Origin: Candidatus Latescibacterota bacterium | GTDB taxonomy: Bacteria > Latescibacterota > UBA2968 | Assembly (NCBI GenBank): GCA_965222605.1 | Contig: OZ244960.1 | Span: forward strand, 3,680,001 to 3,744,000 | Reading direction: 5' to 3' | Length of the DNA: 64,000 bases | Shown here: positions 37,654 through 59,114 of the stretch, piece after piece | How the letters are laid out: every line of letters begins with the position of its first letter | Position numbering within the stretch: the stretch's first letter is position 1 | The notes under the pieces: generated by a model | Database searches by the model: none | What the model was told of the DNA's origin: nothing | Seen by the model: only the letters and a program-made list of their open reading frames with translations | Translations under genes and position numbers: made by a program

Positions 37654-38516
37654 GATATTGGATGGTTACAAATAGGAGATATTCCCAACACTCAGAGGTG
37701 CATCATGGTCATTACTTCCAAAGAGATCGGACAACGATTGCGATTTGCACGCGAAAGCCGACATATCACTCAGGAGGCTGCCGGTATAGTGCTTGGCTTA
37801 CAGAGATCTGCGATTAGTCTCATGGAATCCGGCCAACGGCAGGTTTCCACGCTTGAACTGACCCGTCTTGCGGATTTGTACGGACGTTCGGTCGAGTGGT
37901 TTGTCAATCCGGATAGCCCGCTTAAGCAGGAAGATCCGGTGGTCGCGCTTTTTCGCGCAGAGCCAGACTTGCAAAGCGAGGTCGTTCAGGAGCAAGCCCG
38001 ACGTTGTTTGCGTTTGCTCAGAGAAGGCGCGTCGCTTAGACGGCTGACGGGTCGTGGGACAGATGTTTCTCTGCCCAGTTATGATCTTCCGCCCCCTCGG
38101 TCGGTGGGACAGGCGATTGCCCAGGGCCAGCTTGTGGCCGAGCAGGAGCGTCGGCGTCTCGATTTGGGTAATGCGCCTGTTAAGGTGCCCGAGACTCTGG
38201 CTCGTCAGAATATCTGGACAGCTACTTTGCCATTGCCCGATGAAATTTCGGGTCTTTTTTTGAGTAGTCCCGACTTTGGCATGGCGGTGCTGGCTAATTT
38301 AAATCAGGCGCCGGTGCGGCGGCAGTTTTCGTTTGCACACGAACACGGTCACGCGCTTATGGACCGCGATGAGGCGGCTACTGTTACGAGTGCTCATAAT
38401 GCTAAGACGAGGAGACGATGTGCCTATCTTAGTTGAAATAGTAGAGGCTCCGATGTAAATTGGATACAGCAGATTCAACCGTGAAAACGCTGTGTCCTCA
38501 ACCAAAGGAGCCCGTG

Positions 38517-39837
38517 ATGAAAAAAGTATCGCACAAAGCCCCCAAAGTCAAGGCCATCCACAAAGACGATGCAACGCCAGAGACACCCCTTGAAGAAGAA
38601 GTGGGCGCACTGGATACACGCATCGCGTTGATCCAGGCCTTGATCCCATTAGGATTAGACGCCGTGGCAGAAGAATTGCAAGAAGAAGTGACCCGCTTGG
38701 CAGGTCACAGATACACACGCAAAGACACCCAAAACCCCAATCGTCGGTGGGGCAGTCAACAAGGGTCTGTGTATCTCTCCGATCAGAAAGTGCCCATACC
38801 TGTTCCCAGGATACGTAATGTGGTGACCGATGAGGAAGTCTCCTTACAGACCTATCATCATCTTCAGCACCCCCGCAGGATGGATGAAGGGCTGCTCCTG
38901 CGTATGATAAAAGGCATTGCCACACGCGCTTATCAAGCCTGTGCTGAGGCGATACCCGAAGCCTTTGGGCTCTCCTCATCTACCGTATCGAGACGCTTTA
39001 TCAAGGCGTCGGCACAAAAGTTGAAACAGTTCAAGGAACGCTCTTTAGCACAGTATGACCTCGTCGCCCTATTTATAGATGGAAAGACCTTTGCGGATCA
39101 GGAGATGATCATTGCCCTTGGCGTAACGATAGAAGGAGACAAAATCCCCCTCGGCTTTGTCCAGGCTGCGACCGAGAACGAGCGTGTCTGCCGACAGTTT
39201 ATACGGTCCCTCCTAAAGCGTGATCTGGTCTATCACAAGGGCCTGCTGTGTCTTATTGACGGCTCAAAAGGCTTGTATGCTGCCCTTACAAAGGCACTTG
39301 ATGGCTATGTGGTCATTCAACGTTGCCAATGGCACAAACGTGAGAATGTCATTTCCTATCTGCCTAAAGGAAAGCAAGATGAGATCAAAAAGACCCTCCA
39401 AAATGCCTACGATCTGCCCACCTACAAAGAAGCTAAAGCTGCTCTTGATGCCCTTAAACCTGAATTGACTTTGATCAACGAAGACGCGACAAAAAGCCTT
39501 GAAGAAGGTCTTGAAGAAACCCTGAGCCTGCATCGCCTAAGACTCATGCCGCAGTTGAAGCAGTCTTTCCGTACCACTAACTGCATTGAGTCCCTCAACT
39601 CTATGGTGGCACAACTCACCAGGGATGGTGTACAACGTGTCGCTTTCCAGACACGTTCATGTGAAGCGATGGACAAACTCGAATCAACGCACACGCTGGT
39701 TAGCCACTGCGCTGTTGGATATTGAACCGCGCTTGCGAAGGGTTAAAGGCTTCCGAAGCCTGCCCAAGCTCAGGCGCGCACTGCAGAAGGACTTGAAACT
39801 CGATACAGACTGGCAAGACGCGCTTGCTGCTGATTGA
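38517..39837 (+). pseudogene. IS256 transposase, frameshifted by a 34-nt insertion
   Basis: FIDG, IDGSKGL, QRCQWHK, RTTNCIES.N; C-terminus HVKRW...RWLA.ALL..E.RLRRVKG is in the +1 frame after 39657. Confidence 0.88.
39624..39657 (+). repeat. Short hairpin insertion element, copy 1
   Basis: GATGGTGTAC-AACGTGTC-gctttcca-GACACGTT followed by CAT. Confidence 0.7.
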
Positions 39838-40644
39838 AACCACCGGCCTCGATTATTTCAACTAAAAATAGCACTTGACCAGACGAGGACGGAACAGCGG
39901 GCAAATGCTTTTGCAGCCACTTTTCTGATGCCCGAAGAGGGTGTGCGGGATTTTCTACATAGTCTGGGCAAGGGAAGAAGTGCCCGGCGCGAGGAAGCGG
40001 CGATGGATGCTGTTACTGGAGAGGGTATTCAGGGCGCGTTGCGCAGTCCGGCGCGTTCGCAGAATATAACCTATGTGGATGTGGCGCTTTTGGCCCGGCA
40101 CTTTGGTGTGAGCTATGCGGCGGCGGTTTGGCGGTTGCGCGGTTTGAATCTCCTGGGTAGTGAACAAACCGAACCGCTTCTCGATCAGACGGAAGAAGCC
40201 AATCGCTATTTGCGCGCTGTGAGGGCTTATGCCAATGTAGAAGATTCCGAAGACGAGGCGCATTTGGACCACGAGTTGGATTGGCAGGTTCTTTGGCTGG
40301 CTCTGGAAGCGTGGTGGCGCGAGGAGATTTCACAGGGACGACTGCTCGAAGTGGGCCGCCTGTTGAATATTGAGGACGAGACGATTCTGGATTTGGCGAA
40401 TTGAGGCTTTCTGAATGCTACATCTGTCTCTCGTATGCGGGCATTTTTTTGCTGGAGCTCTATGCGATTTATTTGGGGGTAACAGCGAAGATGTTTTTGT
40501 ACCGGTTAAGAGTTATTGACGCGGTGCTTGACATAAGGCAAGTTATTCCGTAACAAATAAGGACACTGAACATGACATGCGTGCCGCGTGGGAAGCACTG
40601 TTGTCCTTCTGCACGAAGCGCAATACTGTGAAAGAACTGTGGCT

Positions 40645-40920
40645 ATGATCTATGCGATTGTACCTCTTCAGCGGAGTAACGAAGAAAAACTCCGCCAGAA
40701 AATAGAAGCCTTTAGGACGAGTGGAAGGCATGTCTATACTGACTACGCGCCAATTGCTTACTTTGTGTCTTACAAAGGAACGACGCGCGAACTGGCTGAA
40801 GAGATTGGCTTTAGCGGAGGTGAATCGGGCACTGGTATCGTCATACCGGTCTCGAATTACTATGGTTACGCTGCCAAAGACCTCTGGGAGTGGATGAAGA
40901 TCTATGGATATGACACCTGA
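40645..40920 (+). CDS. Small hypothetical protein
   Basis: 91-aa ORF ending YYGYAAKDLWEWMK; overlaps the next ORF. Confidence 0.6.
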   Translation: MIYAIVPLQRSNEEKLRQKIEAFRTSGRHVYTDYAPIAYFVSYKGTTRELAEEIGFSGGESGTGIVIPVSNYYGYAAKDLWEWMKIYGYDT

Positions 40921-41275
40921 GCGAAACGATAACACAGAAAATAGCGAGGATCGAGAACTCGGATCTCCGACACCATCAGAATCTCCATCTCCACCTCATG
41001 CAGACCTAAATGAGTGGATCATGCAGGGTCTCAATCAGCTCAATGAGCGGTTCAACCGGATTGAAGGCAGGCTTGACGAGATTGGGAAAGATGTAGGCGA
41101 TTTGAAGGAACGAGTCGCTCGGGTCGAAGAAAAGATCACGTCGATACCACAGATTGAAAAAAAATTGTGGAGTCTTCAACGCAATATGTGGGTCGCCACT
41201 GGAATTTTAATCGTTATTGTTTTTTTGGCGCGAATATTTTTACCGGATTTCGACATCACTATCACGCCGAAGTGA
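40904..41275 (+). CDS. Coiled-coil protein with C-terminal TM helix
   Basis: LNQLNERFNRIEGRLDEI...VARVEEK followed by a hydrophobic segment. Confidence 0.65.
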   Translation: MDMTPERNDNTENSEDRELGSPTPSESPSPPHADLNEWIMQGLNQLNERFNRIEGRLDEIGKDVGDLKERVARVEEKITSIPQIEKKLWSLQRNMWVATGILIVIVFLARIFLPDFDITITPK

Positions 41276-41319
41276 CCCTTGCCAAACCGCGCACATCTCC
41301 GCATATAGCTACTATACCT

Positions 41320-41352
41320 AACTCCTGATGATTAGTCATTCAGGAGTTTTTT
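41320..41352 (+). terminator. Intrinsic terminator
   Basis: AACTCCTGA...TCAGGAGTT followed by a T run. Confidence 0.65.
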
Positions 41353-41414
41353 GGTATATTGTACAGTCATTCTGAGCGGAGGACCGGTGGGAGCTTATGG
41401 ACAAGGAAATAAAA

Positions 41415-41627
41415 ATGAACTGCATCCACTGTCATGGGCAAATGAAGCGCTCGAATGCGCCTTTCCACGTTGACCGAAAGGGCTATCATCTGATGTTTGA
41501 CACAGTCCCCGCCTGGGTCTGTGATCAGTGCGGTGAAGCGTATTTCGAAGAGCGCGAAGTCACCGCAATTCAGAGTGCGATTAAGGGGCTGGACCAACAA
41601 GCCCGGCAGCTTGTTGCAGACACTTGA
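41415..41627 (+). CDS. YgiT-type zinc-finger protein (MqsA-N-like), orphan
   Basis: M.C..C.G.M...VPAWVCDQCGEAYF. Confidence 0.85.
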   Translation: MNCIHCHGQMKRSNAPFHVDRKGYHLMFDTVPAWVCDQCGEAYFEEREVTAIQSAIKGLDQQARQLVADT

Positions 41628-41733
41628 GATGCTTAGCGCAGGGTTGCGGCACATGGTTACTGCGCCACTAATAATAGGAATCAGCGAAAGGACGCGTACA
41701 ATGCCAGAGACAAGGATCGAGTGGGGCATAGAT

Positions 41734-41946
41734 ATGGAGACAATATCGAGCAAGTGGGGAATAGGAGACGGAGGAAAAGAAAAAGAGATACGAATCGCGG
41801 GAAGGTGCAAAAGTTGCTGGGGAGGACTCATAGGAAGAAGGAACGAAGCATATGAGTTGACAGGAATCAAATGTCGAGTGTGTGGAACGAAGGTAGAAGG
41901 ACAGGATGCAAAAGAAGAACATGAAAGAATGTCAAATAAAAGAATT
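41734..41946 (+). pseudogene. 5' part of a two-CxxC zinc-ribbon gene interrupted by IS4 and IS701
   Basis: RCKSCWGG...KCRVCG; similar A-rich sequence resumes at 43152-43166 and after 44305. Confidence 0.5.
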
Positions 41947-43142
41947 CAAAGTACACGACAAAAAATAAAAGACCTGTGAAAATTGCTAAAAAGAGTTAGG
42001 TTTGAATGTCCAAAACGAACCTTTCTCATCTCAACAAAGCACAGGTCTATGTCCTCTGAAACTATCGAACTTCAAGAAGTTATGCAAGGATATTTTCCAT
42101 GGCATAAAGCGCGCGTGACATTCATCGCCGCGTTCATTGTGTCTCTGATTAAATTGACCAGCGTCAATTTTACCAAACTGGCAAACGCACTCAATGGAAA
42201 TGTTAAGCAAAAATCCAACTATCGTAGAATCCAACGCTTCTTTGCACACTTTGATTTATCCTATGATTGCCTAACAGGGCTGATCTTGCACTTGTTACCT
42301 GTAAAGTCCGATTTCACCCTCTCAATAGACCGTACCAATTGGAAGTTGGGTAAATTTAATATCAACATCCTGACCGCAGGGATTATCTATCAAGGCGTGG
42401 CATTTCCCATCTGTTGGATGCTGTTATCCAAACGGGGCAATTCTAATACACGGGAGCGCATCCATCTGATGAAACAGGTGCTCCAACGCATCCGTAAATC
42501 CCAAATCCACGTTGTGGTTGCAGATCGGGAATTTATTGGGCAAGAATGGTTTGCGTGGTTAGACACACAAAATATCCCTTTTGCCATCCGCATCAAGGAA
42601 AACGCCATCGTCAAATCAGACAATAAAGAGATACCCCTAAAAAAGCTGTTCGCAAACCTGCAAATACACCAGCAAACGATCTTACGTAAACCCCGTCGCG
42701 TTTATGGGCATTCTCTCTATCTGTCTGCGATACGATTGAAGGATGAATGCCTCATTGTTGCCAGTAAAGCACAAGGCCAGTGGGCATTGGCCGCATACAA
42801 AAAACGCTGGGGCATTGAAGTCTTTTTTGCGAACCTTAAAAGTCGAGGCTTTGATCTGGAAGCGACCCATCTCGTCCACGAAGACCGCATTGAAAAACTC
42901 GTTGCACTTCTGGCCATTGCATGTAGTTGGGCGCATATCGTTGGCGAATGGGTTGCAAAACATCATCCGCTGAAAATTAAAACGCATGGACATCGGGAGA
43001 AGAGCCTCTTTCGATATGGACTTGATTACTTGCAGTATCTTCTCCTGAATATTCAAGCCCATCGGTGTGAGTTTAAATACTGTCTCGCACTCTTAAAAAA
43101 ACTATGACTTCAACCTTTTTTGGCGTTTTGTCGTGTACCATG
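41947..43142 (+). mobile_element. IS4-family insertion sequence (1196 bp)
   Basis: Terminal IRs CAAAGTACACGACAAAA / TTTTGTCGTGTACCATG; 9-bp target duplication AAAAGAATT at 41938-41946 and 43143-43151. Confidence 0.92.
42049..43107 (+). CDS. IS4-family DDE transposase, apparently intact
   Basis: IDRTNW, ADREF, YREK-type YKKRWGIEVFF..LKSRGF. Confidence 0.9.
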   Translation: MSSETIELQEVMQGYFPWHKARVTFIAAFIVSLIKLTSVNFTKLANALNGNVKQKSNYRRIQRFFAHFDLSYDCLTGLILHLLPVKSDFTLSIDRTNWKLGKFNINILTAGIIYQGVAFPICWMLLSKRGNSNTRERIHLMKQVLQRIRKSQIHVVVADREFIGQEWFAWLDTQNIPFAIRIKENAIVKSDNKEIPLKKLFANLQIHQQTILRKPRRVYGHSLYLSAIRLKDECLIVASKAQGQWALAAYKKRWGIEVFFANLKSRGFDLEATHLVHEDRIEKLVALLAIACSWAHIVGEWVAKHHPLKIKTHGHREKSLFRYGLDYLQYLLLNIQAHRCEFKYCLALLKKL

Positions 43143-43172
43143 AAAAGAATTACAAATTTAATGAATTAGGAC

Positions 43173-44216
43173 TTACGCAAGCACCATGTGAATAGTAGGC
43201 GCTTTGAGTTGTTGTTTCAAATAATCAGCTAACAAGCCGTATTTGACCTGATAAACGGATTGTCGTGTTTGATAGGCGACCTGTGCAAATCGCACCCAAA
43301 CGAGGAAGGCACATCCGATGTGATTGCGAACAATGCGTGGCAATCGACATTGACACTTTTCAAGACCCGTCACTTGTTTTGCTTCTCGGTGAAATTGCTC
43401 AATTTTCCAACGCCAGTGACACGCCTGTTGTGCCACTTGGGTATCGTTTTGGGCCTGGTCGTTAGTCACGACATATTCCGTGCGTCTGGTAGAAGACATC
43501 ACCCGAAATAATTTCACTTTATGGTCTCTTGGAAAGCCTCTGATTTTAATGCGTTTGCCAGCTTTTGTCTCGCTGACCGTCCAATCTAAGCGGTCTATGC
43601 GTTGATAGGGTTTAGCACCTGAAGAATCATCCACACGCCGATTCGATTTGAGAGGGCAGTAATAGGTTTTTTGCAGTTTCTCAATGTGTAGCATGACCGT
43701 CCTGGTGGCATACCAGCTATCCATTAACACGGTCTGAAAAGGCAGTTTTCTGGCATAGACCAAGACAGATAACATCTCCTGTAGATGATCTAACTTGGTT
43801 TTGCCATCCCCCTCAGGGTCATAAATGCGATAGTCAATGAAAAAGAACCGATCCTGATCGGGATGAACTGCTGGCGCAGTTGTACCCCGTTCGACATAAA
43901 CGCAAGTGACGACCCCGATGCCGTTGATGACCCCTTTGGCATTGCCGCTATATTGACGCCGCACCAACGCAATCTTGTGGGCATGACGCTTGTCCAGCAC
44001 TGTGTCATCGAAGATCACATAGCCCTTTGGGGTCACTTGAATGTGGTCTTTGACGTGTTCCCACACCAGGCGAGGCGGGATGCGATCACCGGATAGGTAA
44101 CGGTTGATCATATCATGACTGAACCTTTGGCTGTGGTCTGCGAAATGGGTCAGCGTATAGTTGATTGGACTGCTCAGCAAATACTGACAGTAATCCAAGC
44201 GGGTTGGTTTATCCAT
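43173..44216 (-). CDS. IS701-family transposase with a 9-aa in-frame insertion
   Basis: FDDTVLDK, RQYSGN, MDSWY, RWKIEQFHRE.KQ.TG.E.CQ.R; ATG at 44216 with GGAGG RBS. Confidence 0.88.
   Translation of the reverse strand: MDKPTRLDYCQYLLSSPINYTLTHFADHSQRFSHDMINRYLSGDRIPPRLVWEHVKDHIQVTPKGYVIFDDTVLDKRHAHKIALVRRQYSGNAKGVINGIGVVTCVYVERGTTAPAVHPDQDRFFFIDYRIYDPEGDGKTKLDHLQEMLSVLVYARKLPFQTVLMDSWYATRTVMLHIEKLQKTYYCPLKSNRRVDDSSGAKPYQRIDRLDWTVSETKAGKRIKIRGFPRDHKVKLFRVMSSTRRTEYVVTNDQAQNDTQVAQQACHWRWKIEQFHREAKQVTGLEKCQCRLPRIVRNHIGCAFLVWVRFAQVAYQTRQSVYQVKYGLLADYLKQQLKAPTIHMVLA
43866..43892 (-). repeat. Short hairpin insertion element, copy 2
   Basis: On the minus strand GAACGGGGTAC-AACTGC-gcca-GCAGTT followed by CAT; encodes ERGTTAPAV. 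Confidence 0.7.
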
Positions 44217-44493
44217 CCTCACCTCCTCGGTGCTCAGGTTAGGCTCCAATCCCGTCAATTTAAAGATTGGAAAACCTTGGGGCTATTGTTTTGCGTAAGT
44301 CCTAAAATATTAAAATAGAGGGAAGGGAGTGCCCTCCAAAGAACGTATAATGAACACAGATAACAGAAGCAAAAACAACAGAGTAAGAGCCAGATACAAA
44401 ACTCTACACTATCTTGCGAGTGGTGTGTTCTATTCAGGCATCTTGAATACGTTTGTCTATTGCTCTACTCTCTGTCCTACAAGGAGAACTTCA

Positions 44494-46630: not shown

Positions 46631-46811
46631 GTGGTAGTCAGCGAAAAATCTCCTGGATTGCGGCTTTAATCATGCCGCAATGACCATTGGTACTCGTCAC
46701 GCCTGCATGCCTGAAGCAGGCGTCCAGGATGGGTGGGTGAAAGCTGATCGCTGATCGCTCCTTACTCTGTGTTTATCTGTGTTCATCTGTGGTTGCTTTT
46801 GTTTTAAATAA

Positions 46812-53933: not shown

Positions 53934-55483
<1,550 letters not shown>

Positions 55484-55599
55484 GGGAGACGCGATGTAAG
55501 GCCATAGGCGCTTACATCTACTCCTAAGGTCAATGCCAGGCTTGGCATGTGCACGTTATTTGGTTTTTAAAAGCCGGGATTTTTCCCGGCTTTTTAGGC

Positions 55600-55676
55600 G
55601 GGCCTATAGCTCAGTTGGTTAGAGCGCGCGCCTGATAAGCGCGAGGTCAGTGGTTCAACTCCACTTAGGCCCACCA
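55600..55676 (+). tRNA. tRNA-Ile (GAT)
   Basis: Cloverleaf with CTGATAA loop and CCA end, in the ITS. Confidence 0.97.
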
Positions 55677-55691
55677 AATTATAAAATATTC

Positions 55692-55767
55692 GGGGATATA
55701 GCTCAGATGGGAGAGCGCCGGCTTTGCAAGCCGGAGGTCACCGGTTCGATCCCGGTTATCTCCACCA
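55692..55767 (+). tRNA. tRNA-Ala (TGC)
   Basis: Cloverleaf with TTTGCAA loop and CCA end. Confidence 0.97.
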
Positions 55768-55896
55768 AAGATGTAACTTTTATAGAATTTTCAACTGCTC
55801 TTTGACAATTGAATATGGATTGGGTAATACAATTTGCCAAACTGAAGTATGGATTCTTTTGCAGAGCACAGTAGTGATCTGCTGAAAACCTGTTTT

Positions 55897-58925
<3,029 letters not shown>

Positions 58926-58996
58926 TTTTTAAACTTTTTTCAGCAGATCGCTTCTGTGCTTTGTTTTGGCGCTCAATCCATATTCATTTAAATTTT

Positions 58997-59114
<118 letters not shown>

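Follow-up and report, generated by a model that had tools for sequence, protein, structure and literature searches.

Two hairpin inserts and the insertion sequences that carry them

A window of 64,000 nt (the whole stretch of DNA analysed here, bases 3680001-3744000 of the single-contig Candidatus Latescibacterota genome G000; 6.34 Mb, 51% G+C, 98.7% complete) contains two insertion sequences (ISs) whose transposase genes each carry a small hairpin-forming insert. A preliminary description of the window had reported 34 extra nucleotides on the plus strand (39624-39657) and 27 on the minus strand (43866-43892); both are present as described, and both fold into the hairpins proposed. The main features are as follows.

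38414..39880, plus strand: IS256-family (Mutator) IS, carrier of the long-form hairpin copy; Pfam Transposase_mut, target duplication
38460..39725, plus strand: IS256 transposase open reading frame (ORF), frameshifted by the hairpin element; the native C-terminal ~60 codons lie in another frame, at 39658-39837
39621..39660, plus strand: long-form hairpin copy; tag GGTGTAC, 8-bp stem AACGTGTC/GACACGTT, 8-nt loop, 3' CA
43167..44314, minus strand: IS701-like IS, carrier of the short-form hairpin copy; Pfam DDE_5/DDE_Tnp_1
43862..43894, minus strand: short-form hairpin copy; tag GGGGTAC, 6-bp stem AACTGC/GCAGTT, loop GCCA, 3' CA

In the long-form copy, 36 nt stand in place of the AA of the empty site, for a net gain of 34 nt. 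In the short-form copy, 28 nt stand in place of a single A, for a net gain of 27 nt that preserves the reading frame. The lengths first given hold as net gains but not as the extents of the blocks themselves. The first carrier belongs to the IS256 family, in that it encodes a Mutator-type DDE transposase (N-terminal part matching Pfam Transposase_mut, E 8.4e-34) and 8-9-bp duplications are seen at three copies; the copy in the window is bordered on both sides by the 9-bp target duplication AGACGAGGA (38405-38413 and 39881-39889). Deleting the 34 nt fuses the transposase frames 38460..39623 and 39658..39837. The transposase ORF of the second carrier (43173-44258, minus strand, 361 aa, DDE_5/DDE_Tnp_1) has its 27 extra nt in frame. 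The name IS701-like is a label carried over from the first reading and not a family assignment made here.

Either hairpin on its own is only mildly unusual. Folded as single-stranded DNA, the long-form copy is predicted to form 8 bp (–7.2 kcal/mol, z –2.3) and the short-form copy 6 bp (–5.2 kcal/mol, z –1.9), and the window shows no enrichment of the heptamer GTACAAC as such (5 observed, 3.9 expected). The significance of the inserts therefore comes from the family to which they belong, of which the window holds only these two copies.

Filled and empty sites

Other copies of the two carriers reveal the empty sites. In this genome, four IS256 copies contain the 34 nt, and precisely these bases are missing from four others, 81-89% identical and one of them partial. 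The sequence is ACCAG-AA-ATGTGAAG at the empty site and ACCAG-GGATGGTGTAC...CGTTC-ATGTGAAG at the filled one. Likewise, two IS701-like copies are filled versus two (~76% identical) without the 27 nt, the site reading TATGTC-A-ATCCCG when empty and TATGTC-GAACGGGGTAC...CAGTTC-ATCCCG when filled. Comparison of filled and empty copies bears out the earlier statement that neither insert has a target duplication.

The same picture emerges from other genomes. We fetched 80 loci with IS256 transposase homologues, the closest of which (88-59% identity) come from metagenome-assembled genomes labelled Candidatus Latescibacterota. The insertion site could be read in 58 of these loci and was uninterrupted in every case (...AQLTRNVKRW...), and the hairpin motif was absent from all 80. 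Homologous transposases thus natively lack the segment. The suggestion that the inserts might be excision scars is not supported, since the empty state is widespread and ancestral.

Contigs assembled from public sequencing runs, which represent other samples and relatives, cover the IS701 site as well. A 404-nt contig of run X6 differs across this site by 27 gap letters and just 7 other letters. In a contig of run X16, the gap comprises 43865-43890 plus 43892, giving GGGATTGACATAA on the plus strand (GTCAATCCC on the gene strand). This junction is identical to that of the genome's own empty IS701-like copies, and a loose end in run X3 agrees with it. As judged by these junctions, the swap of one A for 28 nt dates from the insertion itself and does not stem from old divergence. 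Contigs from RNA libraries are 90-95% alike and derive from relatives, and hence are uninformative on this strain. A relative's contig contains an independent long-form copy, in which 37 nt replace GA at CTC-GA-ATCAACG (CTCGAATCAACG), 25 nt downstream in the same IS256 gene.

A hairpin family with a conserved tag

Searched with the strict motif GG[GT]GTACAAC-N6-24-GTTCAT, the genome gave 28 matches. A relaxed search, for any AAC...GTT hairpin of five or more perfect pairs with GTAC in front, gave 80 sites, the main hairpin lengths being 24 nt (34 sites) and 16 nt (25 sites). Before AAC...GTT hairpins of these sizes, no 4-mer is as common as GTAC (56/248, both strands counted), and the next in frequency represent the reverse-strand reading of the same copies. 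We then built nhmmer profiles from the two size classes and took matches of at least 20 bits as confident copies. There were 150 merged matches at E ≤10, 87 of them at ≥20 bits, compared to none at ≥20 bits in the reversed genome (best 15.7 bits). A family of minimal non-autonomous elements, as posited in the preliminary description, is thus present in many further copies.

The family consensus is (G)G-A-R-Y-GGKGTAC-AAC-[stem-loop-stem]-GTT-CA-Y. Its parts are, in order, a looser GARY segment, the 5' tag GGKGTAC, which is conserved and unpaired, a hairpin of 15-24 nt, and a CA after the stem. The search motif originally given, GG[GT]GTACAAC-N(8-22)-GTTCAT, stands, except that the conserved unit reaches about 4 nt further 5', through GARY. 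The foot of the stem, AAC/GTT, is invariant in 20/20 distinct long and 10/10 distinct short hairpins. Pairs 4-7 co-vary among the 20 distinct long hairpins by compensatory double changes (pair 4: T-A 15, G-C 4; pair 6: G-C 17, C-G 2; pair 7: T-A 12, C-G 5, G-C 1). In the loop, G is kept at the 5' end and (C)CA at the 3' end, with the consensus G-N-Y-Y-Y-C-C-A. The tag sequence GTAC is found in 30/30 long and 24/24 short seed copies, which were themselves chosen on GTAC.

A variant subfamily lacks GGTGTACA and reads GAGC-ATG-ACTG...CAGTTCA; it is ~5 nt shorter, and its ATGA can pair with TCAT. Its members are:

G000:C1 4600305, 5800490, 5819376, 1772991, 4904332 and 3361131

Distribution of the family

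To survey other genomes, we used the pattern GTACAACTG-N6-18-CAGTTYA. It was found in 18/18 sampled genomes of the same genus, with 14-206 matches each, and in 1/12 genomes of the sister family, as a single match; the reversed pattern gave no match in all 31 genomes of this first survey. In a second survey of 168 genomes across the phylum, the pattern matched 20/20 other genomes of the genus, 1/10 from other genera of the family (one match), 3/22 from the sister family (one match each) and 0/115 elsewhere, with two matches in total for the reversed-pattern control. The three single matches in the sister family represent one orthologous locus, with surroundings 87-89% identical. The family is specific to one genus of Latescibacterota. 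A phage origin was considered and set aside, as the long-form pattern had no match in a viral contig collection. In the literature searched, no earlier description of the hairpin family (including the motif GGTGTACAAC) was found, and it is apparently undescribed so far.

Mobility, targets and junctions

A search of the flanks of copies uncovered seven independent sets of filled and empty paralogs, with net gains of 34, 27, 35, 27, 27, 26 and 27 nt and no duplication. Six IS types and one other repeat are the carriers:

The two ISs of the window, IS256-family and IS701-like
A DDE_Tnp_1_3 IS
A second Mutator IS
A TnpB/OrfB_IS605 element, in its upstream region
A DUF772 IS
An unnamed repeat, carrier of the seventh set

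That ISs dominate this list is an ascertainment effect, because paralogous empty sites occur only in repeated DNA. For 70 of the 87 copies, there is no filled paralog within the 250-nt flanks.

Presence and absence of segments of this size are also seen between genomes, in unique DNA. In tilS, a 27-nt in-frame copy that adds AVYNCFSSS is present in 14/19 genus genomes (our own included) and a clean 27-nt gap is found in the other five; in some species the copy shows decay by point mutation. More in-frame copies lie in a GFO/IDH/MocA oxidoreductase gene, in thiE (antisense) and in the gene for a 261-aa protein of no family. In one orthologous intergenic region, a copy is present or absent depending on the genome; there, the copy of G007 holds another one in its loop, and G014 has a copy inside the loop of a GTAG-type hairpin. 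We know four cases of nested copies, and the insert is inverted relative to its host in all four. Such inversion is consistent with purine runs as targets, as only the other strand of the loop consensus G-N-Y-Y-Y-C-C-A has one.

The empty sites include CAG-AAA-TG, GTC-AA-TC, TGC-AAA-TT, TCG-AA-AC, AAG-AA-TC, GTG-AG-TC, GTG-AG-AC and TGC-AAAA-C, in addition to octamer arrays such as (CGAATAGA)n. The junction does not vary at the 3' end (...GTTC-A) and reads G-A-R-Y at the 5' end. Insertion was clean in tilS and in two loop cases. Comparison of intergenic regions between species was tried as a further source of junctions, and their flanks proved too diverged to place these to the base. These data show insertion of the unit as a discrete block, which can face either way, into short A or purine runs, with one or two target bases replaced and no duplication. 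Often the landing runs belong to the loops of other hairpins or to tandem arrays of 7-8-mers. This junction rule is not known to follow from any transposition chemistry.

Genomic context and passive spread

To place the copies relative to genes, we relied on crude longest-ORF gene calls (4889 ORFs, 90% of the genome). By this measure, 62/87 copies are intergenic, compared to ~10% intergenic DNA, and many lie just upstream of long ORFs. The other 25 are scored as genic (16 sense, 9 antisense); several of these, at ORF position 0.01-0.12, are probably upstream of the true start. Copies are thus tolerated mainly in intergenic DNA, and the 27-nt form also occurs in frame in proteins. The preference for IS genes raised in the preliminary description is not demonstrated, as paralog detection sees only repeated DNA and most copies are intergenic. 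Between co-directional genes, the element points along with them 22 times and against them 17 times.

Some copies have clearly multiplied with their carrier. The four filled IS256 copies have only the length of the IS in common, and the three with readable ends possess their own 8-9-bp duplications (AGACGAGGA, AGCGGGAA and AGGCGAAG). These data show that the frameshifted IS256 moved again at least three times after the hairpin landed. Two empty IS256 paralogs are intact (open frames of 452-453 aa) and have near-identical ends, and hence help in trans offers the best explanation of how the IS kept transposing once frameshifted. Inactivation of other mobile elements, which had been proposed earlier, is real as an effect for the frameshifted IS256 copy.

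A second kind of carrier is seen in the sister species G004. We fetched 20 copies from this genome, most of which lie in octamer arrays or other repeated flanks; for 9/20, an entire block of 100-250 nt is missing at the orthologous site of G000. The blocks are inverted arrays of CGAATAGA or CGAATCAA together with the hairpin element and a second hairpin repeat. High copy numbers therefore partly reflect carriers. As units, these composites resemble miniature inverted-repeat transposable elements (MITEs), with octamer arrays (CGAATAGA or CGAATCAA, complement on the other arm) around a ATTGCGGC...GCCGCAAT hairpin, and are located as follows:

G004 loci L156, L159-L163, L166, L167 and L169
G000:C1:5877330-5877500

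Interpretation and alternatives

We think it likely that both inserts belong to a family of hairpin-forming, non-coding mobile repeats that is confined to one genus; its members are very small (net 26-27 or 34-35 nt), resemble repetitive extragenic palindromic (REP) sequences, and would be mobilised in trans and multiplied by carriers. In such a scheme, the tag, the stem foot and the loop would form the recognition module of a trans-acting enzyme encoded elsewhere. Once landed, copies are multiplied passively, as shown above, by carriers, namely ISs and, in G004, mostly the 100-250-nt composites. For the frameshifted IS256 copies, intact paralogs presumably supply the transposase in trans.

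Several observations weigh against this interpretation. No mobilising gene was found in searches for Y1 transposases and REP-associated tyrosine transposases (RAYTs), for RVT_1 and for longer elements with the same ends, so mobilisation in trans by an enzyme is something we infer. For no copy do the data show recent insertion within this strain; the public-run contigs come from other samples and relatives, and contigs with the empty IS256 form can be explained by paralogous empty copies. The one or two replaced bases can also be read as a change of the first A to G plus a clean insertion, and the GARY segment varies within one hairpin class, leaving the exact 5' boundary ambiguous. In addition, 17/87 copies fall in six multi-copy contexts, and hence copy number overstates the number of events. 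The crudeness of the gene calls affects all of the context statistics.

The preliminary description had linked the inserts to HUH-mobilised DNA (IS200/IS605, RAYT, IS91). The corresponding alternative is that they are units of the REP/REPIN type, or palindrome-associated transposable elements (PATEs), moved as single-stranded DNA by a Y1 HUH transposase, either a RAYT or an IS200/IS605 TnpA. The architecture is indeed that of tagged REPs, with an unpaired conserved tetranucleotide beside a hairpin, a size of 20-40 nt and a mostly extragenic location (PMC3733652). Also in keeping with it, target duplications are absent, copies have often landed in hairpin loops, and Pfam Y1_Tnp is matched by three proteins of this genome: an IS200-type protein (141 bits) and two of ~180 aa that are RAYT-like and contain HUH and Tyr motifs. 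However, no family copy lies within 6 kb of any Y1 gene in this genome, and the tag GTAC is neither GTAG nor CGTC. Nor is there any orientation bias by replichore (25/27 and 18/17, Fisher p 0.83), given an origin near 3.05 Mb and a terminus near 0.04 Mb as judged by GC skew.

The distribution of candidate enzymes also argues against this alternative. Y1_Tnp matches 11/18 genus genomes. A profile built from three RAYT-like proteins matches 6/18 genus genomes and 12/12 sister-family genomes, which is the inverse of the element (18/18 versus 1/12). Five element-bearing genomes (G004, G006, G010, G016 and G017, with 67, 23, 196, 126 and 63 pattern matches), four of which are single-contig genomes, have neither a Y1_Tnp nor a RAYT-like match, although a very divergent enzyme could escape such profile searches. 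What the RAYT-like genes carry or precede is not the hairpin element but GTAG-type perfect palindromes, which within the genes occupy the same coding position, right after the HUH motif:

L083:1564-1585, L082:1670-1698 and L153 ~1444-1472: GTAG-type palindromes in RAYT-like genes, e.g. GGGGCGACGCA/TGCGTCGCCCC, encoding ...GATHASP...

These palindromes point to a second, GTAG-tagged REP family linked to the RAYT-like genes. In G011, such a palindrome follows the RAYT-like gene, and a copy of our family has landed in its loop. We therefore regard movement by a Y1 HUH transposase as unlikely, on the basis of searches that covered IS200/IS605 and RAYT enzymes and did not extend to IS91.

Alternatively, the unit itself might be immobile and spread only as a passenger of larger repeats, aided by recombination or gene conversion. 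The 17 copies in multi-copy contexts, the nine G004 copies in blocks absent as a whole from G000, and the multiplication of the IS256 and IS701-like copies along with their IS would all be expected in that case. Against it stand the presence and absence of element-sized segments (26-35 nt) in unrelated, unique contexts, including tilS, six IS types and the loops of both family copies and GTAG hairpins, and the 70/87 copies without a filled paralog in their flanks. We consider this less probable still than movement by an HUH enzyme.

Selection for a cis-acting site, either a protein-binding site in DNA or a hairpin in RNA, could account for the intergenic enrichment, the frequent position just upstream of long ORFs, and the conserved loop and tag bases. 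It is hard to reconcile with a copy that frameshifts a transposase, with copies inside tilS, thiE and an oxidoreductase gene, with the decay of the tilS copy in some species, or with the absence of orientation bias relative to co-directional flanking genes, and we judge it quite improbable. Insertion via RNA by reverse transcription, or removal of the 34 nt at the RNA or ribosome level (splicing or translational bypass) in a way that keeps the IS256 transposase intact, would suit the variable 5' and exact 3' junctions, the A-rich targets and the continued transposition of the frameshifted IS, but seems barely credible, since the genome has no Pfam RVT_1 match, orientation shows no bias with transcription, reading of the sequence reveals neither matching codons for take-off and landing nor a stop behind a take-off site, and intact paralogs with near-identical ends can account for the continued transposition.

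For the preferred interpretation, that of a small repeat mobilised in trans, these comparisons suggest that the mobilising enzyme is probably neither a Y1 HUH transposase nor a reverse transcriptase. Two further candidates were tried and rejected. Larger elements ending in the motif, which the preliminary description had raised, were sought as GTAC-AAC plus 4 nt paired with its complement plus GTTCA, 40-8000 nt apart; the 26 pairs found are close to chance (roughly 12 expected by our own estimate), and only the known nested case has the full tag. The gene between the direct copies at 3029854 and 3030586 encodes, by motif, an RsmG-like methyltransferase.

Neighbouring genes and other repeats

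The IS256 copy of the window splits an HTH_3/Peptidase_M78 (ImmA/IrrE-type) gene, parts of which lie at 37705-38436 and 39928-40404. Contigs of public runs X3 and X6 connect 38404 directly to 39881, without the IS, and hence related populations have the gene in uninterrupted form. Directly adjoining the IS701-like element is a DDE_Tnp_1 (IS4-type) transposase gene present in a single copy (41983-43107), and an rRNA operon lies at 53934-59114.

The window also contains a copy of another dispersed short hairpin repeat, ...CTCTGGATTGCGGCTAAAAACATGCCGCAATGACG... (46645-46684, i.e. G000:C1:3726645-3726684), with ~70 BLAST matches in the genome. The genome contains several independent families of small hairpin repeats. 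As a restriction-type palindrome, TGTACA proved unremarkable (observed/expected 1.03). Genome-wide, GTATAC is strongly avoided (0.10, 64 sites), as is TGCGCA (0.38), which suggests restriction-modification pressure.

IS110-family elements are known to target REPs. In these genomes, a 1610-nt element of this family (Pfam DEDD_Tnp_IS110, 7.6e-30; Transposase_20, 7.8e-20) invariably has ...GAGCGGTG on one side and TGTACAAC... on the other, which places it inside the conserved tag. It abuts three different hairpin types and, in one instance, a hairpin-less look-alike site, and the tag, with a TG overlap, appears to be its homing site. Copies are located as follows:

L175:1-1610 (G000:C1:3341159-3342768)
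G000 ~4859681-4861292, 4319157-4320765 and 951972-953582
G004 L157 and L158

Relation to known repeats

The closest counterparts are the tagged REPs of the GTAG and CGTC superfamilies, palindromic repeats of 20-40 nt with an unpaired conserved terminal tetranucleotide; they are mostly extragenic, with some inside genes or other small palindromes, and the CGTC REPs have no dedicated transposase (Di Nocera et al. 2013, PMC3733652). Our family is likewise a palindromic dispersed repeat of 20-40 nt, mainly extragenic and present in many copies. It differs in its tag, GTAC within GGKGTAC, which fits neither superfamily ('GTAC' does not occur in the text of PMC3733652), in its invariant AAC/GTT stem foot, in occurring as single units that are mostly not inverted dimers, in showing no RAYT association, and in its restriction to one Latescibacterota genus. 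REPINs, short hairpin repeats arranged as inverted doublets and associated with flanking RAYTs, have been proposed as non-autonomous mobile DNA evolving in the genome (Bertels and Rainey 2011, PMC3116915). In our family, by contrast, singlets dominate, the few close inverted pairs are mostly nested insertions, and RAYT-like genes anticorrelate with the element. It works like a REP but fails two tests that define REPs, the GTAG/CGTC tag and the RAYT link.

Other systems share fewer traits. IS200/IS605-type (HUH) elements insert beside a fixed tetra- or pentanucleotide, which the empty site retains; the empty sites of our family are A or purine runs, in which one or two bases are replaced. Rickettsia palindromic elements are palindromic repeats of ~100-150 bp found in frame in protein-coding genes left open; our family shares this in-frame insertion and adds only 27 nt, or nine codons. 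MITEs have the terminal inverted repeats of a parent IS and target duplications, and PATEs keep both IS ends and show strand bias. Our family is similarly short, hairpin-forming and non-autonomous, but no duplication at the filled/empty sets, no parent IS and no strand bias were found. With integron attC sites, only the AAC/GTT foot (R box) is alike, and family copies are dispersed rather than in arrays.

The SDR4-6 repeats of Nostocaceae are said to be mobile repeats of 21-27 nt with no known transposase, which occur nested, within genes and in tandem heptamer arrays. By that description, they have in common with our family the size, nesting, genic insertion, 7-8-mer tandem arrays and lack of a transposase, but they belong to another phylum. 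Among HIP1-enriched cyanobacteria, no SDR-like repeat was reported outside Nostocaceae (PMC5861425). We suggest, tentatively and with considerable doubt, that our family and the cyanobacterial SDRs form a distinct class of ultra-small mobile hairpins, the mechanism of which is neither HUH nor reverse transcription and swaps one or two target bases instead of duplicating them. If so, either a new transposition chemistry or a host replication or repair reaction on tagged hairpins might be at work. On present evidence, the family is a tiny mobile element of REP/SDR type with a new GTAC tag.

How REP-like repeats move without a RAYT is an open question, known examples being the CGTC REPs and the cyanobacterial SDRs. 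The present family offers filled and empty sites, nesting, in-frame insertions in housekeeping genes, a defined module and a 15-fold range of copy number among sister species. Its mobiliser could be sought by comparative genomics, for which the genus provides a ready series of 21 genomes (14 to 206 pattern matches each), and tested in vitro. For annotation, the family accounts for frameshifted transposases and 9-residue protein inserts in these genomes. It also reveals that this uncultured phylum harbours a small ecosystem of mobile DNA, in which the element breaks or decorates the transposases of at least three IS types, sits in three further ISs, and rides them.

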